NCBI GenBank assembly: GCA_964575955.1
Contig: CAZNTG010000006.1
Span: forward strand, 32,001 to 96,000
Source: an uncultured Thermoproteaceae archaeon
GTDB lineage: Archaea; Thermoproteota; Thermoprotei; Thermoproteales; Thermocladiaceae
DNA length: 64,000 bases
Direction: 5' to 3'
In this document: piece by piece, positions 10,630 to 54,314 of the stretch
How positions within the stretch are numbered: the first letter of the stretch is position 1
Layout of the letters: each line of letters starts with the position of its first letter
Translations under genes and position numbers: made by a program
The notes under the pieces: generated by a model
Told to the model about the DNA's origin: nothing
The model's input: the letters and a program-made list of their open reading frames with translations, nothing else
The model's database searches: none

Positions 10630-11592
10630 TTAGAGTGTTGACATTATTGAATCAAATATTAAGTAGAATATTACAGATATCAGAGGTGAGTACAGTATTG
10701 CTAACAATAGTGCAATTCCATAAACATTAAAGTATGGAGGTTTCATAAATGCTAACATTTTCTGCATAAATCCAGTGACACCTATGGGGATACCCGCAAA
10801 TAATAGTTGTGGTAGTGTAAACGCTGCATATATTATCAATATTAATGATGGTGCTAGAAATGCCATTATTGAATATGTCTGAAATAGCAGTGTAAGTGTT
10901 GTTAATACTTGTCTCAGTCTTAAGAACTTATCCCTAACAAGAACATTCAACTTCTGCAATATTATTCTCTCAGGTTCAGTTGTAAGTTGAATACTTTGAA
11001 TTAATGCAGACATGACATCTTTATACACTATAGATCTTGTTCTATCTATACTCCTCTTTATAGCTGTTATAATATCAACACCAAGCATACAATCTTTTAA
11101 AATAAGTCCAAGCTCATGTCTAATTTCAGGATCTTTCTCAACTTGATAAAGCCTAGTCAACACCTCTATCAATGGTGCAGATGTTGCTAATAGTGGAACC
11201 ATATATGATACAGTATATAGAAACCTCTCGTTTAGATGTGTGTCCCTTCTATAAATTTTCATTAAAACATTACCTAAGAGCCCTACTAAAGCCATGAATA
11301 GTCCCATTAAAGTTATCGATGCTGTCAATATTACATATTTCAATATTACCATTCTAGTTATTGTGTAGAGTATTGATAATCCTATACATATTGGTGTAAA
11401 TAGTATTATACTGTAAAGTATTGATAGTAGTAGATATTTAAATAAGTTCTTATTTATTCTATATCCTGTATATTCATAAAATCTATTAGATATATTTTCT
11501 GAAAATGTGTTAAGTATTCTAGCTATATTTCTTACATGTACTAATATTCTAGTGAACTTTAATACCCTCTTAAGGTTACTTGTCTTCATCAA
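10630..11592 (-). CDS. Type IV pilus/T2SS F-family membrane platform protein (TadC/ArlJ-like)
   Basis: TM pair plus T2SSF cytoplasmic domain (ILKDCMLGVDIITAI) plus C-terminal TMs; downstream of secretion ATPase. Confidence 0.85.
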   Translation of the reverse strand: MMKTSNLKRVLKFTRILVHVRNIARILNTFSENISNRFYEYTGYRINKNLFKYLLLSILYSIILFTPICIGLSILYTITRMVILKYVILTASITLMGLFMALVGLLGNVLMKIYRRDTHLNERFLYTVSYMVPLLATSAPLIEVLTRLYQVEKDPEIRHELGLILKDCMLGVDIITAIKRSIDRTRSIVYKDVMSALIQSIQLTTEPERIILQKLNVLVRDKFLRLRQVLTTLTLLFQTYSIMAFLAPSLILIIYAAFTLPQLLFAGIPIGVTGFMQKMLAFMKPPYFNVYGIALLLAILYSPLISVIFYLIFDSIMSTL

Positions 11593-11621
11593 ATTTTTGT
11601 GTATAGTATATTCAACTCCTT

Positions 11622-13193
11622 TTAAGGTATTACTCCTGAAATAACCTTAAAGTAAGTATCTTCGGGATTTATGTGATAGCTTCTAAAGATTCTAAATACT
11701 GTTGCTGGATCTCTAAAGTTGTATCTTGCCATTGCTTCTAGAATTTCTTTACGTCTTTGAACTTCATTAATTAGATTTTCATATGGTACGAGCCTGACCT
11801 CTGCAATTTCTTTCAATAGCTCGCTCTCCTCATATTTTTCAACTCTATCTGTGAGTGGATTGTATTTGTATGGTGTTATAAATCTTGGTTTACCATTTTC
11901 AAATCCTCTAAATTCTTTAATTTCTATTACTCTTCTAACGATTCTATCGAATATTCTAACTCTCTGAATATTGCAAAATACATGAGCCATTCTTAACAAT
12001 CTTTTAGGCACATTCATAGGTTTTGTTGTTAATCTCATTATTGCTGCCTCTACAGTATCTGCATGCAGTGTTGTTAATCCTGCATGTCCACTTGCAAATG
12101 CTTGAAATAGTGCATATGCCTCTTCACCTCTAATCTCACCAATAACTAGGTAGTCTGGTCTTATTCTCATTGAGACTTTTATAAGGTCGAACTGTGTTAT
12201 CTCTCTAACCTGTGGATTGAATGATGGTCTTGTAAGTAATGGAACCCACTGTTCATGTGGAATATTTATCTCTCTAGTATCTTCAATAGTGACTATTCTA
12301 ACTTCAGGACGTATCAAGTATAGTAGTGAGTTTAATAATGTCGTCTTACCACTACCTGTAGGTCCAATAATTACAACATTAAACTTATAATCGATGACAG
12401 TCCATAGATATGCTGCTGCTTCAGCACTTATAGTTCCAGCCTTTATTAAGTCCACTATTGTGAATGGTTCAGTTCTAAACTTTCTAATATTTATACAATG
12501 TCCAAGTGGTGCAATATCACTTAGAGCTGCTTCAACTCTAGCAAAATTACCTATAAGACCTTCAAGTATTGGATTAGCACTACTTACATTTCTCTTTACA
12601 ATTTGTGAAATTTTTACGATATAATTATATATTTCCTCGGCAGTTTCAAATTTTACATTTGTCCTAAGATGCTCATAATAGCTATGCCATACATATACAT
12701 ACCTTCCAGGACCATTAACATTGATATCTTCAATATATGGATCACGCATTAATGGATCAAGCTTTCCAAATCCAACAACATCTCTCATTATGTAGTACAT
12801 GTACTTTCTCAATACTGAGTCAGGTATGTCTAATTTGAGCTTCTTAATAGCATCTTTAACATATCTTTCTAATCTCTCTTCAGGAAACGAGGTTCTTCCA
12901 GTTAAAACGTCATCTAAGATCTTTCTATCTTTCATAATTATATCTCTGACAAACTCTCCAATCAATTCTAGATTCTTCACATCTTCATCTGTTAATGGTG
13001 GTTCAACAACATTGTATACTAGAACACCTTCTTTCTCATCTCTATAAATTATGACATAGACAAATCCAGGAATTACACTATATACATCTCTGAGAAGTAT
13101 CGCACTTTTACTCTCTAGAATCTTTTGAATATGTTCCTCCTTAACTTCTGTTTGTGACGTTGCTTTAATCACGTTTCTACATTTATTTTTCAA
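11622..13193 (-). CDS. Type IV pilus assembly ATPase (ArlI/TadA/VirB11 family)
   Basis: DPLMRDPYIEDI, GPTGSGKTT, IEDTRE, RIRPDYLVIGEIRG, GHAGLTTLHA. Confidence 0.95.
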   Translation of the reverse strand: MKNKCRNVIKATSQTEVKEEHIQKILESKSAILLRDVYSVIPGFVYVIIYRDEKEGVLVYNVVEPPLTDEDVKNLELIGEFVRDIIMKDRKILDDVLTGRTSFPEERLERYVKDAIKKLKLDIPDSVLRKYMYYIMRDVVGFGKLDPLMRDPYIEDINVNGPGRYVYVWHSYYEHLRTNVKFETAEEIYNYIVKISQIVKRNVSSANPILEGLIGNFARVEAALSDIAPLGHCINIRKFRTEPFTIVDLIKAGTISAEAAAYLWTVIDYKFNVVIIGPTGSGKTTLLNSLLYLIRPEVRIVTIEDTREINIPHEQWVPLLTRPSFNPQVREITQFDLIKVSMRIRPDYLVIGEIRGEEAYALFQAFASGHAGLTTLHADTVEAAIMRLTTKPMNVPKRLLRMAHVFCNIQRVRIFDRIVRRVIEIKEFRGFENGKPRFITPYKYNPLTDRVEKYEESELLKEIAEVRLVPYENLINEVQRRKEILEAMARYNFRDPATVFRIFRSYHINPEDTYFKVISGVIP

Positions 13194-13362
13194 GTGAAGA
13201 GTTTATTTTCTTTAATCTTTATTCACATACATAGGGACTACAATACGTATTAAGTTTAGAGTTAAAAGACTTAAAAAAAGAGAGGAGAGAAGACCTCGAA
13301 GAATTGCTATAGAGCAAATTATCAAACTACCATTATACATTTTAGTACTTTTATGCATATTA

Positions 13363-14217
13363 ATGGTAGCTATGCAATCTTTGAAGAAAAGTCCAATCGT
13401 GTTTACGGCAGTGATTCTCAATAAGACGTTTAGAATACCCTATTCTCCATTTGAACCAAGGTTTGTATTAGAACTAATATTTCTATCGATAGCACTTGTT
13501 AGTCCAGTAGCCTTCTATGAGTATAGTAGATACAAACTTCTATATAGAATTGAAGATCAGCTACCTGTAGTTACTAGAATTATTGCTGATGCTCTAAGAA
13601 CAGGAACAGTAATTGAAGATGCGATACAACTTATCGCCAGAAGTGGTATTAGTCCTATAAATAAGATATTAGGGAAAGCACTTGTATTAAGTAGATATAG
13701 ATCTATACCAATAACTGAATCTATAAGAATTTTAGGAAATAGTATTGGTGCTGAACAACTTGTCAGATTTGCAGACCTTATAGAACTCGCGTATAGGTAT
13801 GGTGCAAGAGCTGAAGAAATCTTAGAGGTGGCTGCAAGTACCATGGAATCAATACAGACTTACAAAAGGGAAAGAATGGTAAATCTTAGACCATATGTAG
13901 CACTCATATACATGATAGTATTCGTATACTTGTTCATATGTGGTATAATTGCTGTCCTCTCAGCTCTACACATTACAAACCCTATGGGTCATGTAAAGAT
14001 GAGCATTAACGAGACTACATTAAACATGATGTTGTCAGTTGTTGAATATATAACTCTAATAAATGTTGCAGGTGCATCATTAGTCATTGGTAGAATAGTT
14101 TATGAAAGACCACTTGCAGGCCTGATACACTACGTCATATTAGCACCAACAACATACTTCACATTAATAGTAATGAAAGCACTTCTAATCAGGATGCTAA
14201 TTCCTGGAGTAGTATAG
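13363..14217 (+). CDS. Second T2SS F-family platform protein (TadB/C-like), divergent from ATPase; true start probably upstream
   Basis: IEDQLP...IADALRTG, LRPYVALIY; frame open from 13216. Confidence 0.85.
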   Translation: MVAMQSLKKSPIVFTAVILNKTFRIPYSPFEPRFVLELIFLSIALVSPVAFYEYSRYKLLYRIEDQLPVVTRIIADALRTGTVIEDAIQLIARSGISPINKILGKALVLSRYRSIPITESIRILGNSIGAEQLVRFADLIELAYRYGARAEEILEVAASTMESIQTYKRERMVNLRPYVALIYMIVFVYLFICGIIAVLSALHITNPMGHVKMSINETTLNMMLSVVEYITLINVAGASLVIGRIVYERPLAGLIHYVILAPTTYFTLIVMKALLIRMLIPGVV

Positions 14218-43148: not shown

Positions 43149-43574
43149 TTAGCTAGATACATATCCCCTATATATTCCATAGTTCGTATATACAACAATA
43201 GTATACACATCATAACATTGAGAACCTTCAAAATATATACTCAATACCTGTCCAGGTCTTATCGTAATTGGAAGTTTTAATTTTTGATTATTTAGACTTA
43301 CACTAGATAATTCACAATTTGAAATCTCATTTCCTGAACTATCAAATAGTTTTATAGATTTAATACGAACTTCACCAACACCAATATTCCTGATATCTAC
43401 AATAAGCTTACTATTACCGATAAGATATCCATTAACTGCAATCTGCGCACTACTACTAATACCACCTGTCATTAATGTGTATATTATTGCACCTAGAGTT
43501 ACTGATGCTAAAATTCCAACAATAGCCCAAACTATATCTGATAATGCACCTCTTCTAGACTTTGATAGCTTCAT
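43149..43574 (-). CDS. Archaeal type IV pilin (class III signal peptide)
   Basis: KSRRG/ALSDIVWAIVGILASV basic leader, cleavage site and hydrophobic helix; IRNIG beta-sandwich motif. Confidence 0.85.
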   Translation of the reverse strand: MKLSKSRRGALSDIVWAIVGILASVTLGAIIYTLMTGGISSSAQIAVNGYLIGNSKLIVDIRNIGVGEVRIKSIKLFDSSGNEISNCELSSVSLNNQKLKLPITIRPGQVLSIYFEGSQCYDVYTIVVYTNYGIYRGYVSS

Positions 43575-47745: not shown

Positions 47746-47833
47746 GCGGGGGTGCCCGAGCCTGGCCAAAGGGGGCGGGTTGAGGTCCCGCTGGCGTAGG
47801 CCTGCGTGGGTTCAAATCCCACCCCCCGCACCA
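47746..47833 (+). tRNA. tRNA-Leu(GAG), intronless, encoded CCA
   Basis: GCGGGGG acceptor stem/CCCCCGC-ACCA; anticodon arm GCGGG-TTGAGGT-CCCGC; long variable arm; GGTTCAAATCC. Confidence 0.96.
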
Positions 47834-49206
47834 GACCTATATACTATGTTTGTTATAACTTCTTCAGGTCTCTTATAGAATTCTGAGATTATACTGAGCT
47901 GTTGTGTATATGATTTTCTGACTAGATTTTTAATAATTTCTCTTCTATACTCAATCTCATCTCTAGGTATTTCTACACTATTTGGGATATATATATCTGA
48001 TACTTTTCTAATTTTTCTACAAATTCTAACACCATCTAGCTCAACTATTGTTGTACCTGTATGCATTTTAACTACAGCAATTTCTTTCAAAATATTTTGA
48101 CTATTTTCAATCATATTTGATAACCTCATTTTCAATTTATCATAACTATCTGCGTGAAATGTTGTAACACCACCATGACCTGTAGTTACGGCATCAATCC
48201 ATGCTTGAACTTCATCTCTAGTTCTAACCTCATTAACAATAATGTAGTCAGCACCTATTCTCAATGCATGAGCTATTAAATCTGACTTTGTAATTGATTT
48301 AACTCCAAGTCCATAGGATCTTCTTTCAATCAACTTAACAACATTATGACCAGGAAGTGTCATCTCATCAACATCCATTATCAATGCTTTAAATAGTGTT
48401 GGATTACTACAAAATGTTATTGCATTAGCTAGACTAGTCTTACCAGAACCCATAGGACCTATTATCAATATTGGTATCTTATTATCAAATAAATACCACA
48501 ATAATGCACATTGAGTAAAATCTACACTATCTCTAACAATAAGATCACCATAAGTCCAAGGACTTCTCGGTAAGATTCTAATATGTATGTAAGGTTCAGA
48601 TATTGGTTTTATCGAAATTGAAAATCTAACTCTAAACTCATGATCAGTAACTGATATCATAGGCATGTATGTTGTTATTGGACTACTAGATCTCTCAGCA
48701 ACACGAGAAATTACATATTCCAAAAAATCTTTAAGACTATATACCCTTCTATAAAGTCTATGCTTTACAAATTTAAGTATTGTAGATTTAAAATCTACGT
48801 ATGTATTTTCAAACTCAACATTAACTTCACAAAGACCGAAATCAGAATGATATGCATAGAAGTTTGATGTTGTTAAGTATATATCAGTAATCTTGTCATA
48901 TAATAATAATGGTGTTAAAATACCATAATATTTAAACCACCTAGTCCAAACTAAGCTAATATCCTCATAATTAACATTTAGAGATTTAGAAATTTTCTTA
49001 ATAATACTATCAACATCCTTACCTGAAATTACTAGACTATATATGAAATACGGATCTACATGTTGTATACCTTCATCAACATCATCATATAGATATATTA
49101 TGAATGTTGAACCTATCTGACGTATATCTATTATTGATCTAACTAGGAAATCTACAATAAAACTTTCAACAAGTTTACCATTAGGTTTTGACTTACTTAT
49201 AAGCAC
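47812..49206 (-). CDS. VirB11/TadA-like secretion ATPase; 3' end overlaps tRNA antisense
   Basis: LTPLLLYDKITDI, GPMGSGKTS, ALRIGADYIIVNEVR, TGHGGVTTFHA. Confidence 0.88.
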   Translation of the reverse strand: MLISKSKPNGKLVESFIVDFLVRSIIDIRQIGSTFIIYLYDDVDEGIQHVDPYFIYSLVISGKDVDSIIKKISKSLNVNYEDISLVWTRWFKYYGILTPLLLYDKITDIYLTTSNFYAYHSDFGLCEVNVEFENTYVDFKSTILKFVKHRLYRRVYSLKDFLEYVISRVAERSSSPITTYMPMISVTDHEFRVRFSISIKPISEPYIHIRILPRSPWTYGDLIVRDSVDFTQCALLWYLFDNKIPILIIGPMGSGKTSLANAITFCSNPTLFKALIMDVDEMTLPGHNVVKLIERRSYGLGVKSITKSDLIAHALRIGADYIIVNEVRTRDEVQAWIDAVTTGHGGVTTFHADSYDKLKMRLSNMIENSQNILKEIAVVKMHTGTTIVELDGVRICRKIRKVSDIYIPNSVEIPRDEIEYRREIIKNLVRKSYTQQLSIISEFYKRPEEVITNIVYRSGAGGGI

Positions 49207-49351
49207 GTATAGTTACATATCTTAACATTACTAAATTCCAATCATATTGGGAGCTATAGAAACTCGATATAAATATTTAATGAGTATATACCTGATAGAA
49301 TAAGACTATTCAGGACGTACAAAAAAGATCATTGCATATCTTAAGTACTAA

Positions 49352-50077
49352 GTGGAAATATGTGAAACCATGAGTGTAAGACATAGATATAATATAACAA
49401 CATTTGACAATTTAGTATTAAGAACTTACAATCCAACAACATACATACCTCTCAATATTTGGGAAAGAATGTATAAGAGAGGAGAATTAACTATAAAGAG
49501 CTTAATAATACTTGGATGGAGAGTTAAATCATTAAGAGAGTGTAGACTATTTGGATTAGCATTCTCAGACTTACATGATCAGGATAGACTACTAGACATA
49601 GTATCGGTATTAGGTAACTATAAGAAGAGAGTTCATATAAAATTTACAAGTAGAGAATCGAGTATAGTATCAAAAATATATGAACAACATATAAGATATA
49701 GAACAACTATAAGCAATTACCTACTATATCTTTTTCTAACAGGATTTTATGCAAATTCAAGAGTAGTCACACATTACTCAAACTCGATAGATAGAATAAA
49801 ACTTGCATATGAGGATGAAAATATGCTTAAAGAAATGATGAAAACAGTGTTAAAAAACGTATTAAAAAATTATGAAGATATAGTGATATTTAAGAATAGG
49901 ATTATAACTGAATTATCGAGAACTCGTAGAAGGAGTACAATAAGGCATATTAAGAGAATTAATAATGAAAATGATAAAGAGAGATTGATATCATATATAT
50001 TAGACTCAGTGATATTTAATATAAAACCAGGAGCATTATTGAAGACCTATGTAAAAAACTGCATAGGATATGTATAG
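49352..50077 (+). CDS. Hypothetical protein, possibly eroded HerA/VirB4-like ATPase remnant
   Basis: 241-aa ORF; in-frame upstream segment from ATG 49280 reads MSIYLIE*DYSGRTKK; IPLNIW motif. Confidence 0.4.
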   Translation: MEICETMSVRHRYNITTFDNLVLRTYNPTTYIPLNIWERMYKRGELTIKSLIILGWRVKSLRECRLFGLAFSDLHDQDRLLDIVSVLGNYKKRVHIKFTSRESSIVSKIYEQHIRYRTTISNYLLYLFLTGFYANSRVVTHYSNSIDRIKLAYEDENMLKEMMKTVLKNVLKNYEDIVIFKNRIITELSRTRRRSTIRHIKRINNENDKERLISYILDSVIFNIKPGALLKTYVKNCIGYV

Positions 50078-50459
50078 AATATTTTTAGCAATATCAGCTG
50101 AGAGTATAAGTAAGAATGTTATAGAACCATTCCTAAAATCTGCATACGACATCGTATCTATAATAGGTGGTTTAGCATTATGGGCTTTAATAATAATGTC
50201 TATAGTGAAGTTAATAGAGAGTAAACTCGGACCAACAGGTTGGTATAGATCTGCAGCTATGACAGGTCTATTTGAACTATTTAAGAGATTTCTAATAGCA
50301 ATAGCAATATTCTACGTAATAACATACATAATTGCATATATAATGAGCTCAATGGGTACAACTATAAATCCAACACAACTTGCAACAAACATCTTACTAA
50401 ACATGTTATTTAAACCATTCACAACACTGTACAAATATGTGATAAGTACAGGTAAATGA
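50070..50459 (+). CDS. VirB2-like conjugative-type pilin (TedC/CedA1-like)
   Basis: 129 aa, two long hydrophobic helices split by basic loop ESKLGPTGWYRS; between ATPase and large membrane protein. Confidence 0.6.
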   Translation: MYRIFLAISAESISKNVIEPFLKSAYDIVSIIGGLALWALIIMSIVKLIESKLGPTGWYRSAAMTGLFELFKRFLIAIAIFYVITYIIAYIMSSMGTTINPTQLATNILLNMLFKPFTTLYKYVISTGK

Positions 50460-52933
50460 TATTACAGATAGCATTAGCGATAGAATTAACAATATTCACA
50501 ATACTCTACCTTAAGAATAGAAATCTTAGAGATATAAAGGATTTAGTAACAACAATAATATTAATATCAATAATAGTATTAATATCCTCAAACTACATAC
50601 TAAACTACTCTATATGCATTAAGAAGACTAGAGATATTATAGAAGTTTTAGAAAGTTGTTCAAAAATACTAAATTTAACAATATTAACATATTCTATTAG
50701 TCTCATACTACTTTCAATCTTAATATCTATAGTTCCTGTATTAAACATAGTTAATACTATATACCTATTTTACACATTACCACTAGGAAAGATTATAGAT
50801 CCTGTATTGAATAGTTTGATAATAATTTCAAACATTATACAACTTACACTAATAGTTCTAGTAGCAGAGCTAGATTTACTAATATTCTCTAAAGTAGCTT
50901 TAAAATATCTAATATTTCTACCACCTATATCATTAATAAGAAGATTAAAGATGCCGATAATTCTGATAGTGGTCTGCATACTCATAATTATAATATCAAC
51001 AGGATTGATATATAAGTCAGGAATATCGAAGATAAATCATAAAATTTTGAGAAAGATTAAGGATGAAATATTTAACATATCTAAATCTATCTCTAAAATC
51101 AGCATAGAGTATAGTAATATATCGATATTTAGATATATTTCAAATTATGGAGAGGTAAGTATCATATATATAAGATGTGGAAATTATGTAGATAGAGTAT
51201 TCGGTCTTGGAAATATTACGATTATATACAACTGTAGTAATGTAGGGCTTTTAAAAGCTTTCAAAATAGTGTTAAACTATAATGTAAGTAGTGAGATTTA
51301 TTGTAAGTATACTAAACATAGAAATATAACATACGTAGTATGTCATTCAAAATCCAAATTAAGACCTATAATCTATAGAAGATATCTTGTAGGATTACTT
51401 CATACCAACTGTTCTAAAGTATCTATAAAATTTATAGATAATATCACACTTATAGTCAGGAAACATCTAAATGCTTCATGTAGCGTAAATATAGTAGGTC
51501 CCTTCTCAGGTAGCGAAAATGTTCAATATAGTAATGTTCAATATAGTAAGATTGAGATACTGAGAAAAATTCTATATAAGATATATAATGTTGATAAGAT
51601 TGTAAATTATTACTATAATAAGAGTGTTGTAGATTTGAGAAAAATTCTAACATTAATACAGACTATAGACAATTTGAAGTACTATACTGTCAGGAAATTC
51701 ATTTTGCATAGAGATGTAGATAGTATATACATACATTTTCCAATTAGTAGAGCTGTGTTATGGCCTGTAAATATATCAACTATACCATATTCAAAATCTA
51801 TATATACATACTATAGATATCTCATAAACGTAAAGTCTGAATGTTCTAATATTTTGAAAACATTTAATTTCTATAAGTACTTCAATAATATTATAATCAT
51901 CTCACTATATTCACTATTCTTAACAATATTCTCAATAATTGCAGCAATGTACATATTGACAAATATCTTAAGTTTAGAAGGTATTGTTATATATCCTCTA
52001 ATTAAGTTTGGAAAAATATTACTATCTGAATTTTTAATACCTCTATACTTTAAGATTGCTAGTAAAGCTGTATCTAAGAAATTTATTAGAAGTATCTATA
52101 GAGCTTTCAAGAAAAGTGAAGGAATAGTAATTTTGGATAATTATCACAGAGTTGAGAATGTATTGAAGACGTATCACCATAGATATAGGGTTGAAGGTCT
52201 TTATACAATTTCAAATTATGCTAGAAGAAGATTATCAAAATATATCGATAGGAGAGTACTGTATGAAATTGAAAATAGGAGGATGCCAATTCTATATTTG
52301 AAGAACTTAGATATAAAGAAGAAAGATTACCAAACTAAGATTATTATTGAAGATATTATGAAAAATCTTGGTATATCTATTGAACTTTTATCAGACTTCT
52401 CAATTAGGAGATTTGAAAGACTTGATAGACTATCTAAATATGTATTATCAACATATATAAATGTTTCTAGAGGATTCAGATACTACAATATTATAGACTT
52501 ATCTATTGATATGAGATTAACACCATACCATATATTGTTACTATCATTAGACAGAGATGTTATTACTAATGTCTTACGGAGGTTAAATCTTTATGATATG
52601 TTTAAGGATTATCTTGATGTTAATAGAGATTTTATATTTAGCAAGTTTAGGACCTACATTTATGATCTATATTATGCATCATTATTAACATCTAGAATTA
52701 TACATAGGAGAGTTACTGGTTCTATAATTTTGAGTTTGTTAAAATATTCTGACTTAGATAGATCTCTATATGTTAGAGAGGTTAAGAACATTTTAAGATA
52801 TCATATTGATTTTGATGTTGTTAAGAAAATATTAGATGAGTATTTGAGAGAGGTTTATACTAGATATTCTGGTAGTTTTAGAAGGAGAGAATTGTATAAG
52901 GTTAATATTTTAAGAAGGTTATTTAATGTTTAG
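50456..52933 (+). CDS. Large polytopic membrane protein (TedA/CedA/VirB6-like architecture)
   Basis: About 5-6 N-terminal TMs, large N-x-S/T-rich loop, further TMs, basic cytoplasmic tail. Confidence 0.5.
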   Translation: MILQIALAIELTIFTILYLKNRNLRDIKDLVTTIILISIIVLISSNYILNYSICIKKTRDIIEVLESCSKILNLTILTYSISLILLSILISIVPVLNIVNTIYLFYTLPLGKIIDPVLNSLIIISNIIQLTLIVLVAELDLLIFSKVALKYLIFLPPISLIRRLKMPIILIVVCILIIIISTGLIYKSGISKINHKILRKIKDEIFNISKSISKISIEYSNISIFRYISNYGEVSIIYIRCGNYVDRVFGLGNITIIYNCSNVGLLKAFKIVLNYNVSSEIYCKYTKHRNITYVVCHSKSKLRPIIYRRYLVGLLHTNCSKVSIKFIDNITLIVRKHLNASCSVNIVGPFSGSENVQYSNVQYSKIEILRKILYKIYNVDKIVNYYYNKSVVDLRKILTLIQTIDNLKYYTVRKFILHRDVDSIYIHFPISRAVLWPVNISTIPYSKSIYTYYRYLINVKSECSNILKTFNFYKYFNNIIIISLYSLFLTIFSIIAAMYILTNILSLEGIVIYPLIKFGKILLSEFLIPLYFKIASKAVSKKFIRSIYRAFKKSEGIVILDNYHRVENVLKTYHHRYRVEGLYTISNYARRRLSKYIDRRVLYEIENRRMPILYLKNLDIKKKDYQTKIIIEDIMKNLGISIELLSDFSIRRFERLDRLSKYVLSTYINVSRGFRYYNIIDLSIDMRLTPYHILLLSLDRDVITNVLRRLNLYDMFKDYLDVNRDFIFSKFRTYIYDLYYASLLTSRIIHRRVTGSIILSLLKYSDLDRSLYVREVKNILRYHIDFDVVKKILDEYLREVYTRYSGSFRRRELYKVNILRRLFNV
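51518..51547 (+). repeat. Perfect 15-bp tandem duplication
   Basis: AATGTTCAATATAGT x2 (NVQYS NVQYS). Confidence 0.85.
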
Positions 52934-52990: not shown

Positions 52991-54031
52991 TTATACTCTT
53001 ATGACTATTTCCAACTTATCTAATATTTCTTGATATCTTTGTCTAATTGTTACATCTGATTTTCCTGTTGCTTGTGATACTTCTTTCTGTTTTCTCTTAG
53101 TGTTAACTATGTTTACGGCTATGTATATTGCTGCTGCAGCTATTGCATATTTATCTTTTCCATTTGTGAGTCTTATTTTTCTACATGCATCTATGATGTT
53201 CCATGTAAGCTTCATTATTGGTGGTCTTAGGTCTGATGGAACTTCAAGTTTGTCTAATACTGTAGATATGTATCTTCTGATTTCAGCCTCATTTATAACT
53301 GATGTTTGAATGTTTATTCCTGAGCTTGCTAGTATTGATTTTATTTCTGTTAAAATTTTTGCAAGTCTTCTTCTATCGACATTAAATTCTGTTAATATTT
53401 CTTTAATTCTAAATCCTAAACCTCTATTTTTACATGCTACGTATAGTAGGGCTGCTGCAAGTTCTCTTAATCTATACATCCTCTTCTTTCTCTCAGGTAT
53501 CTTACCTTCTTTCACTGCTTTAGCGATATGTCTATACATGTGTATTACATCATCGATTATGCTTGATGGTAATCCAAGTTTTTGTACAACATTCTTAACA
53601 TATCTTTGAAGTGTTACAACATTTCTCTCAGTACTTGTAACTCTAAGTCTCTGGTGAATTATGCTAAGTCTTTCAAGTACTGATCTCATCTTAATGTTTT
53701 GTGATACTTTTGTTACATCAATCTCATCTTGTCCAAGTCCTTGATTTGGATATTTTATGTCAGTCTTGTATAGTCTTTCTTTTTCTTCAGCTTCTTCAGG
53801 TGTGTATACTCTATATTCTGGTCTTGTTATATCTGGTATTTTTTCAACAATTATTGAGCCACACTGTGTACATACTACCTGTCCATTTCGATAATCAAAT
53901 ATTATTTTTGGACATCCACAGTATGGACATCTTGTCAATTCTTCAATATTTACAACAGTTTCAGTCTTCTCCTTATCTTTATGTAACTTCTTTCTTAGGT
54001 ATTCAAATTTTGAAATTTTTTCATCAATCAT
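52991..54031 (-). CDS. tfb: Transcription initiation factor IIB paralog
   Basis: Zn ribbon CPYCG...CTQCG, PEYRVY B-reader, cyclin repeats AAALLYVAC / AAAAIY, TIRQRY. Confidence 0.93.
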   Translation of the reverse strand: MIDEKISKFEYLRKKLHKDKEKTETVVNIEELTRCPYCGCPKIIFDYRNGQVVCTQCGSIIVEKIPDITRPEYRVYTPEEAEEKERLYKTDIKYPNQGLGQDEIDVTKVSQNIKMRSVLERLSIIHQRLRVTSTERNVVTLQRYVKNVVQKLGLPSSIIDDVIHMYRHIAKAVKEGKIPERKKRMYRLRELAAALLYVACKNRGLGFRIKEILTEFNVDRRRLAKILTEIKSILASSGINIQTSVINEAEIRRYISTVLDKLEVPSDLRPPIMKLTWNIIDACRKIRLTNGKDKYAIAAAAIYIAVNIVNTKRKQKEVSQATGKSDVTIRQRYQEILDKLEIVIRV

Positions 54032-54032
54032 A

Positions 54033-54314
54033 CTATCTCCTCTTTCTTGTTCTTGATTTTTCAAGATCAAGTACTCTTACATATACTGCTTTACCTTTAA
54101 ACTTTTCTGGATCTTCAAGAACATTTCTGTCAGGTTTTACTAAGCCAAATGGGCTTGATACAGGTCCAATAACATCATATAGAATTCCTAATCTCTTCAT
54201 AGCGTAGTCATATACTGTGATGTAGAGTGGTGGTACCATGCTTAATTTAATTACAAGCTTCTTATCGTGTGAAAGATGAAGAACTTCACCTATCTTCTTC
54301 AATGATGTAGACAT
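54033..54314 (-). CDS. gar1: H/ACA RNP protein Gar1
   Basis: LGILYDVIGPVSSPF; conserved gar1-tfb adjacency. Confidence 0.9.
   Translation of the reverse strand: MSTSLKKIGEVLHLSHDKKLVIKLSMVPPLYITVYDYAMKRLGILYDVIGPVSSPFGLVKPDRNVLEDPEKFKGKAVYVRVLDLEKSRTRKRR

Follow-up and report, generated by a model that had tools for sequence, protein, structure and literature searches.

We analyzed a 64-kb stretch of archaeal DNA, here called the window (G000:C6:32001-96000; genome G000 measures 1.52 Mb in 15 contigs and is 94.7% complete). It comes from a hot-spring archaeon whose genus, so far uncultured, has Caldivirga, Thermocladium and Vulcanisaeta as relatives. The locus of interest, at positions 47746-52933 of the window, consists of a tRNA-Leu gene, an ATPase gene and, divergent from the latter, a unit of three overlapping genes. 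The middle gene of this unit encodes a homologue of the conjugative-type (VirB2-like) pilin TedC, and the ATPase is an archaeal type IV pilus (T4P) assembly ATPase of subclade 4G rather than a VirB11; both assignments are well supported. Our preferred reading, to which we give a probability of roughly 0.6, is that a locus of the Ted (Thermoproteales exchange of DNA) system shares its place, and perhaps its regulation, with a contact pilus, much as Ced is associated with Ups. The features of the locus are as follows.

47746..47833, + strand: tRNA-Leu(GAG), found with ARAGORN; sole tRNA of the window
47812..49206, − strand: ATPase of the T4P (FlaI/PilB/TadA-like) kind, 464 residues; assigned by Pfam T2SSE, PDB and NCBIfam scores and by a tree
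49207..49351: divergent intergenic region, 145 bp, between the ATPase gene and the three-gene unit
49352..50077, + strand: basic soluble protein of 241 residues, without a known family; open reading frame (ORF) list and homologues
50070..50459, + strand: TedC homologue, 129 residues; assigned by profile, fold and context; 8-nt overlap with the 241-residue ORF
50456..52933, + strand: polytopic membrane protein, 825 residues; ORF list; 4-nt overlap with the 129-residue ORF

A first-pass annotation of the same DNA had proposed this tRNA gene and these ORFs, all of which were found at these coordinates and on these strands.

The 129-residue protein is a TedC homologue

An alignment of 12 sequences shows that the family of the 129-residue protein has two hydrophobic helices with an invariant loop between them. 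Comparison of the 12-sequence profile with all PDB sequences yielded 8dft_A at E 4e-4 (query residues 32-118, chain residues 20-108), with the next match at E 0.53. 8DFT is the TedC pilus of Pyrobaculum calidifontis and 8DFU is A. pernix CedA1 (Beltran et al. 2023, PMC9905601, cited throughout for individual passages); CedA1 was not matched by the profile at E-values up to 10 in the PDB search and was absent among the Foldseek matches listed. An AlphaFold2 model of the 129-residue protein contains three helices (predicted local distance difference test score, pLDDT, 77.7). The top Foldseek match of this model was again 8dft_A, with probability 1.00, TM-scores of 0.62/0.70 and a root mean square deviation of 2.9 Å over 101 columns; all other matches listed had TM-scores of at most 0.42.

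The genomic context agrees with this identification. Phyletic counts refer to 120 genomes of the class, among them 30 of the window's family (f1, which includes the Caldivirga and Thermocladium loci) and 29 of a family with the Pyrobaculum-type Ted layout (f3). The TedC family is present in 30 of the 120 genomes (f1, 22/30; f3, 7/29) and is confined to f1 and f3. In f3, tedC is followed by a gene for a 273-329-residue multi-transmembrane protein of the TedA family, and a HerA-like (TedB-like) ATPase with transmembrane segments is encoded either directly adjacent to tedC (locus L052) or ∼6 kb upstream of it (L049). The same tedC/TedA/TedB-like layout is described by Beltran et al. 2023 (PMC9905601).

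Because the 129-residue protein is a TedC homologue by profile, fold and context, we regard the locus as Ted-type, in agreement with the first-pass annotation, which had seen a VirB2-like two-helix protein in a Ted/Ced-type locus and had named the lack of a pilin fold as an argument against it; the fold matches that of the TedC pilin in 8DFT. Hydrophobic segments number two in the window TedC and the other f1 members, which lack a signal-like segment at the N-terminus, and three or four in f3 members; P. calidifontis TedC carries a cleaved signal peptide (Beltran et al. 2023, PMC9905601). Since it is devoid of a class III signal peptide, TedC is not a usual T4P substrate.

The ATPase is of the T4P kind and not a VirB11

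The 464-residue ATPase matches Pfam T2SSE (PF00437) at E 5.3e-20, and the residues of its catalytic motifs (Walker A, Asp box, Walker B and His box) do not vary among 21 members of the family. A word-based search with the ATPase retrieved 26 proteins at E<=0.001, 22 of which form a tight family (E<=5e-88), with the next match at E 2e-23; its named members come from Caldivirga, Thermocladium or unclassified Crenarchaeota. NCBIfam scores were 92 bits for BasE, 89 for FlaI, 78 for TadA and 74 for VirB11 (TIGR02788), the last against a VirB11 cut-off of 250. Similarly, the PDB scores were 77.5 bits for FlaI, 75 for AfGspE, 53 for CpaF and 28 for VirB11. A search of 72,556 plasmids gave 73 records at E<=1e-8, and the best 40 of these 73 are CpaF or haloarchaeal ATPases; among the best 60 of 504 records of a relaxed search, TrbB first appeared at 3e-8 and VirB11 at 8e-4.

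A tree was calculated from 35 sequences: 15 of the 22 family members, six ATPases of a module found in genus g5 and on a Caldivirga contig (g5/C34), ten other archaeal ATPases, one CpaF, two TrbB and one VirB11. The clade of the window ATPase forms one branch (Shimodaira-Hasegawa-like approximate likelihood ratio test, SH-aLRT, 99) and is sister to the g5/C34 clade (97). With the root placed by choice on VirB11/TrbB, and with several long-branched rows, both clades nest in the archaeal group, CpaF comes next, and VirB11/TrbB split off (SH-aLRT 91). The window's ATPase clade is restricted to one archaeal family. The VirB11-type assignment of the first-pass annotation is thus contradicted by the NCBIfam, PDB and plasmid comparisons as well as by the phylogeny, in which the window ATPase groups with archaeal T4P ATPases.

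The 3′ end of the ATPase gene has a peculiarity. The final 22 nt of the tRNA-Leu gene sit beneath it, so that at 47812-47833 the final ATPase codons are the reverse complement of the tRNA-Leu 3′ end; the overlap is also present in L004. Because this tail is not conserved within the family, the C-terminal end of the ATPase looks like read-through to the next stop codon. In three relatives, the gap between the ATPase and tRNA-Leu genes holds an extra gene (L001:9475-11058, L002:9405-10385 and L003:2271-3341) for a product of 326-527 residues with an N-terminal transmembrane or signal segment and, in two of the three, a long proline run; a counterpart is absent from the window.

Genes of the pilus module

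In T4P subclade 4G, both the ATPase and TadC are diverged, and they are accompanied by pilins of the PilA family and by a FleN/MinD ATPase (Makarova et al. 2016, PMC4858521, section 14; cited throughout for individual passages and supplement tables). In Thermocladium, the ATPase orthologue is directly followed by a gene for a 337-341-residue multi-transmembrane protein. In g5 and on the Caldivirga contig, the module reads: pilin-like genes, a gene for a 357-382-residue protein with seven transmembrane helices, the sister-clade ATPase gene and a ParA/MinD gene. The multi-transmembrane proteins beside these ATPases form a single family, A6, whose members are adjacent to the ATPase or sister-clade ATPase in three genera. 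A6 occurs in f1 only (25/30, compared with 0/89 genomes of other families), and within g5 in exactly the seven genomes that have the ATPase clade. Pfam and PDB profile searches of the A6 family gave nothing significant; the corresponding gene is named 'TadC/FlaJ family, subclade 4G', arCOG10359, in the supplement of Makarova et al. 2016 (PMC4858521).

The A6 member of G000 is encoded at C6:371516-372661, beside three pilin-like genes (C6:372753-373943) and a SWIM-finger gene. A further pilin-like gene lies in the window itself:

43149..43574, − strand: pilin-like protein, 141 residues, with a class III signal-peptide-like N-terminus and homology to a pilin-like protein of L046

This protein is 32% identical (E 3e-17) to a pilin-like gene product of the Vulcanisaeta-type module in L046, and is likely to be a pilin of the same system as the ATPase; the class III signal peptides of the pilin-like N-termini were assigned by eye from the motif. 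A prepilin peptidase is indicated by a Peptidase_A24 match (E 8.3e-10) at C6:501196-501453. The first-pass annotation had noted that the interval 47746-52933 contains no TadC, class III pilin, integrase or relaxase. This holds for that interval; beyond it, on the same contig, the pilin-like gene is 4 kb away and the TadC-like gene 290 kb away.

A SWIM zinc-finger family adjoins Ted or 4G genes in several genera and, in G000, the TadC-like gene. Its genes are located as follows.

G000:C6:371092-371427: SWIM zinc-finger gene
L043:6602-7195: SWIM zinc-finger gene
L044:17624-18202: SWIM zinc-finger gene
L049:5894-6475: SWIM zinc-finger gene
L053:8128-8739: SWIM zinc-finger gene

L043, a Caldivirga contig of 8.1 kb, carries a second 4G-type module in which a gene for a RadA/Rad51 paralogue stands between the TadC-like gene and the ATPase gene; it also encodes the SWIM-finger protein, a ParA-like protein and, at the contig end, a TedC-like fragment.

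Other Ted genes of the genome

The remaining Ted genes of G000 lie on other contigs. TedB is encoded at C10:7752-9842 as an intact protein of 696 residues with N-terminal transmembrane helices and matches to DUF87 and AAA_10. Over 718 aligned positions, it shares 32% identity with the protein whose gene immediately precedes tedC in Thermocladium; its identity with a protein of the g5 Ted operon is 29%. A ParA/MinD-like gene (C10:6281-7078) precedes tedB, and its orthologue is found upstream of Thermocladium tedB. A genome search for a VirB4-like gene had been suggested by the first-pass annotation, which took this gene to be eroded or elsewhere; it is indeed elsewhere, and it is not eroded.

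The canonical TedA, a 269-residue protein, is encoded at C7:114759-115568. It is 30% identical to the g5 TedA encoded beside tedC and matches the TedA profile (A4) at E 1.9e-107. This profile was found in 20/30 f1 and 10/29 f3 genomes, with two weak matches elsewhere. TedA is adjacent to tedC in genera g5, g7 and g8, and distal in g1-g4, g1 being the window's genus. An hhalign comparison of TedA with TedC aligned a short G-P-T...R motif at E 0.06, which was not upheld with a deeper TedA alignment (E 0.26).

The 825-residue protein, a candidate Ted component

In g1-g4, tedC is followed by a gene for a large membrane protein of the 825-residue family, with sizes of 804-841 residues in g1, 1240 in g2, 1090 in Caldivirga and 913 in Thermocladium. 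An exhaustive hidden Markov model search of 1.84 billion representative proteins found only 22 members at E<=0.001, and no family of Pfam or NCBIfam was matched by the window protein. Its domains can be outlined as follows.

Residues 1-195: hydrophobic helices, likely in the membrane; probable TedA-like domain
Residues 196-465: beta-rich, 11 N-x-S/T sequons, 7 Cys; likely outside
Residues 466-545: transmembrane pair, likely in the membrane
Residues 546-825: basic helical, pI 9.9, no Cys, 1 sequon; likely in the cytoplasm

The basic character of the C-terminal domain recurs in relatives: the final 280 residues of five of them have a pI of 9.8-10.9. When 14 N-terminal domains were compared with 26 TedA sequences by hhalign, residues 19-210 aligned with TedA residues 39-247 at E 1.5e-4 and a probability of 52%, while all controls (two reversed alignments, 20 column shuffles and two unrelated membrane families) gave E >= 0.28; a shallower alignment of the family gave E 0.0043 and a probability of 8%. 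We take the N-terminal domain for a probable TedA/VirB6-like paralogue to which further domains have been fused. The first-pass annotation had taken the protein for the VirB6-like channel; the canonical TedA is a separate gene, and what stands of the proposal is the probable divergent TedA-like nature of the N-terminal domain. We consider the 825-residue protein a lineage-specific partner of Ted and, because a large TedA-like protein regularly follows tedC in four genera, a candidate new component.

An AlphaFold2 model of the protein from a five-sequence alignment was unusable (pLDDT 42.9), and the ESM Atlas gave nothing usable. The name 'CorA-like Mg2+ transporter', which a Caldivirga homologue bears in the 2016 supplement, finds no support in Pfam scans: neither the 825-residue protein at E<=1 nor two homologues at E<=0.01 gave a match to any family.

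Conservation of the locus and neighbouring genes

The window proteins were compared by BLAST with the ORFs of 17 related loci. The 241- and 129-residue genes are present in L001, L002, L004, L005 and L007, and the divergent arrangement is identical in every locus that holds them. The 825-residue gene is present in L001, L002, L005 and L007; L004 is cut by the contig end. A gene for transcription factor B (TFB) lies beyond the 825-residue gene in L001, L002, L005 and L007, and GatD lies beyond the ATPase gene in L001-L003. tRNA-Leu adjoins the ATPase orthologue in five of six loci scanned (L001-L005), with none in L007, which ends inside the ATPase gene. The neighbourhood check suggested by the first-pass annotation thus shows the four-gene order, with TFB, tRNA-Leu and GatD, recurring in related genomes. 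The four genes are real rather than chance ORFs. Because tRNA-Leu is kept beside the ATPase orthologue in L001-L005, it is an inherited chromosomal neighbour and not an integration site. The GC content of the locus is 0.26-0.29, compared with 0.31-0.36 in the flanks.

The 241-residue protein is basic (pI 9.8) and soluble. Its homologues, found in 5 of the 17 loci, are all encoded adjacent to and upstream of tedC and are restricted to g1-type loci. Profile searches of the protein and its family against Pfam, NCBIfam and the PDB gave no significant match. Below threshold, its ESM Atlas neighbours were NikA-like/ribbon-helix-helix mobilization proteins (TM-scores 0.38/0.44), and two of six family members matched Tra_M at E ∼0.1. 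Residues ∼92-133 form a conserved stretch that, read by eye, looks like strand-helix-helix. We take the protein for a genus-specific accessory protein that may be a DNA binder or a regulator. In the adjoining intergenic region, a block at ∼49246-49261 is conserved in three of six aligned genomes (the window, L001 and L002, but not L004, L005 and L007) and may be a promoter or operator element.

The window TFB is full-length (359 residues; 52991-54070, − strand), convergent with the 825-residue gene and syntenic in L001, L002, L005 and L007. A second TFB of the genome, at C7:103874-104968, is 30% identical to it. In Sulfolobales, ced, ups and herA are under the common control of a TFB paralogue (Beltran et al. 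2023, PMC9905601).

The genome holds further secretion-type ATPases. A conventional second T4P core occupies window positions 10630-14217, where T2SSF/TadC genes at 10630-11592 (− strand) and 13363-14217 (+ strand) flank a gene for a T2SSE ATPase of 523 residues (11622-13193, − strand). Outside the window, at G000:C13:32557-34600, the gene for a divergent 395-residue T2SSE-like ATPase adjoins that of a 283-residue protein with a TFB-like zinc ribbon; Makarova et al. 2016 (PMC4858521) describe a similar ATPase-TFIIB pair under 'subclade 4D'.

Relationship between the pilus module and Ted

The ATPase gene is adjacent to tedC in 6/7 g1 genomes; in the remaining one, the contig stops next to the ATPase gene. 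In two genomes of the sister genus g5, G082 and G085, tedC and tedB enclose the complete 4G pilus module, all on one strand. Pieces of TedA, TedC and A6 are found on one contig in G084, and the Caldivirga contig joins the second module, with its RadA paralogue and SWIM protein, to the TedC-like fragment. The link between a motor and the pilin/channel genes that the first-pass annotation had claimed is therefore present (in 6/7 g1 genomes, and for the sister clade elsewhere), though the motor is a T4P ATPase. The same annotation had regarded an ATPase that groups with T4P motors and is unlinked to these genes elsewhere as an argument against its reading; the T4P grouping is found, but so is the linkage, in g1 and, with the sister clade, in G082 and G085.

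Several observations weigh against our preferred reading. TedC and TedA occur without the ATPase clade and A6 in G094 (99% complete), and conversely the ATPase and A6 occur without TedC and TedA in G086 (99% complete) and G091. All f3 genomes with Ted are devoid of the ATPase clade and A6; across f3, the best ATPase E-values are ∼1e-21 to 1e-30. In Caldivirga and Thermocladium, the ATPase orthologue is not near tedC, so the adjacency in g1 may be mere synteny. Pfam T2SSF does not detect A6, and hhalign of A6 against T2SSF gave E 0.14, so that the label 'TadC-like' is based on context and the arCOG annotation of 2016. Lastly, the hhalign probability that links the N-terminal domain of the 825-residue protein to TedA is just 52%. 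The counts of linkage and separability are not independent, because the genomes are kin.

From the identities, gene linkage and phyletic patterns, which are directly established, we propose the following model. The 129-residue gene provides the TedC pilin and the 825-residue gene a lineage-specific partner, with the rest of Ted scattered over contigs C7 and C10. In the 825-residue protein, a probable TedA/VirB6-like N-terminal domain is joined to a glycosylated domain outside the cell and a basic one in the cytoplasm, the latter a possible holder of DNA. The ATPase belongs, as assembly ATPase, to a lineage-specific 4G pilus, with the TadC-like partner and class III pilins encoded elsewhere in the genome. 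According to Beltran et al. 2023 (PMC9905601), Ups and Ced work jointly. By analogy with the Ups pili that serve Ced, the 4G pilus might make cell-cell contact, after which the Ted pilus and channel would move DNA. The 145-bp divergent region, as a putative promoter region common to the ATPase gene and the three-gene unit, could co-regulate the two.

Among the alternatives, the one that survives best, although we consider it doubtful, is that there is no functional link: the ATPase would serve a pilus for adhesion or biofilms, and its position next to tedC would be an inherited order in a small, gene-dense genome. The unlinked orthologues of Caldivirga and Thermocladium and the phyletic separability of the two systems speak for it, and the conservation of order is not specific to the pair, because TFB, tRNA-Leu, a 99-residue membrane protein and GatD are also syntenic. 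Mere inheritance of one order fits less well with co-location in at least three arrangements (divergent in g1, nested in the operon in g5, and as a second module with the TedC-like fragment in Caldivirga), or with a SWIM-finger gene that belongs to Ted loci in several genera and sits by the TadC-like gene in G000.

We judge it less probable still that the ATPase, with or without the TadC-like partner, is an integral Ted motor in the role of VirB11, the 4G and Ted genes encoding one hybrid machine in which the ATPase would energise the growth of the TedC pilus or the passage of DNA through TedA-like proteins. In the fullest version of this idea, equally unlikely in our view, a T4P motor replaces VirB11 in the T4SS-derived DNA importer of this archaeal family, the 825-residue protein is the DNA-conducting subunit and its basic cytoplasmic domain receives the DNA. 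Such a machine would suit the divergent adjacency of the ATPase gene to tedC in 6/7 g1 genomes while the TadC-like gene and the pilins are on other contigs or 290 kb off, the position of the module inside the Ted operon of G082 and G085, and the ParA/MinD-like genes that occur by the ATPase gene in g5 and by tedB in G000 and Thermocladium; moreover, the TedA and TedC arCOGs already figure as parts of the assembled 4G system in Makarova et al. 2016 (PMC4858521). It is at odds with the TedC pili reported from P. calidifontis, with the absence of the ATPase clade and of A6 (0/29 genomes) from f3, whose Ted loci have the Pyrobaculum-type layout, with the occurrence of either system without the other in G094, G086 and G091, and with TedC not being a usual T4P substrate.

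A mobile conjugative or viral element integrated at tRNA-Leu, as the tRNA neighbour and the low GC content might suggest, was set aside on synteny as highly improbable: genomes with ATPases of just 49-60% identity retain the order, including tRNA, TFB and GatD, the remaining Ted genes are chromosomal and scattered, and the ORF list of the window shows no integrase, although a repeat of the tRNA end was not searched for.

Taken together, the pilus module and Ted are separable yet repeatedly co-located, which suggests a partnership of the Ups-Ced type in Thermoproteales that can be tested, for example in cultured Vulcanisaeta and Caldivirga strains. Thermoproteales had been taken to lack such a pilus partner, and a literature search for TedC, TedA and TedB indicated that very little is known of Ted beyond the pilus structure.

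Comparison with known systems

The window ATPase shares with bacterial VirB11/TrbB the P-loop secretion ATPase superfamily (PF00437) and a neighbouring gene for a VirB2-like pilin. It differs in its length of 464 residues, with a long N-terminal domain, compared with 322-332 residues in the bacterial references.

The resemblance to subclade 4G is closer and comprises the FlaI-type ATPase, the diverged TadC/FlaJ-like arCOG10359, PilA-family pilins (arCOG03871) and the FleN/MinD ATPase. The match is based on homology to Caldivirga and Vulcanisaeta genes and on coinciding coordinates. In these two genera, 4G has two 'associated membrane proteins', arCOG10497 and arCOG10500, and the supplement places Pcal_0765 in arCOG10500 and Pcal_0766 in arCOG10497 (Makarova et al. 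2016, PMC4858521); by locus tag, Pcal_0765 is TedC and Pcal_0766 is TedA (Beltran et al. 2023, PMC9905601). The 2016 study had thus already drawn the TedA and TedC arCOGs as parts of an assembled 4G system, and two literatures overlap without a connection in the passages searched: those of Beltran et al. 2023 (PMC9905601) contain no mention of VirB11 or PilB, and those of a 2026 type IV filament census (PLoS Genet, PMC13705601) none of Ted or 'conjugat'. The Caldivirga supplement table lists arCOG10359, a FlaI-type arCOG01817 beside a pilin, arCOG10497, arCOG10500 and, beside the last, the 1096-residue arCOG13765 (PMC4858521). The coordinates of this table coincide with the A6, ATPase, TedA and TedC matches in the genome G066, and arCOG13765 corresponds in position and size to the member of the 825-residue family that follows tedC in the Caldivirga locus L041 (1090 residues). 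Likewise, the order in the Vulcanisaeta supplement table (FleN, ATPase, arCOG10359, pilins) is that found in L045. Unlike these assembled modules, the module of g1 is dispersed, with the ATPase gene alone by tedC, the TadC-like gene and pilins 290 kb off and ParA with tedB.

As in Ted, a TedC-family pilin, a TedB (VirB4/HerA-like, with N-terminal transmembrane helices), a ParA/MinD-like protein and a TedA with seven transmembrane helices are all encoded in the genome, and their scattering matches the dispersal of Ted components over distal loci that Beltran et al. 2023 (PMC9905601) describe for some genera. The differences are that tedC is followed here by the 825-residue gene instead of a short TedA and preceded by a genus-specific 241-residue gene, that the window TedC is without a cleavable signal peptide of the P. 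calidifontis type, and that a T4P ATPase is the divergent neighbour. The probable presence of a paralogous VirB6-like membrane protein beside the canonical one also has a parallel in CedA/CedE of Sulfolobales (Wu et al. 2025, PMC11868833); the 825-residue protein is three times larger and has extra extracellular and cytoplasmic domains.

The broadest likeness is to Ups and Ced of Sulfolobales, in which a T4P for species-specific contact is combined with a DNA importer derived from VirB2, VirB4 and VirB6. This likeness involves no membership by sequence, the TedC profile not reaching CedA1 (8DFU) at E-values up to 10. The ups and ced genes are not known to be adjacent in Sulfolobales. Measured against all of these systems, the locus combines known parts in a new way and has one component that is a candidate for novelty; it does not represent a new type of machine.

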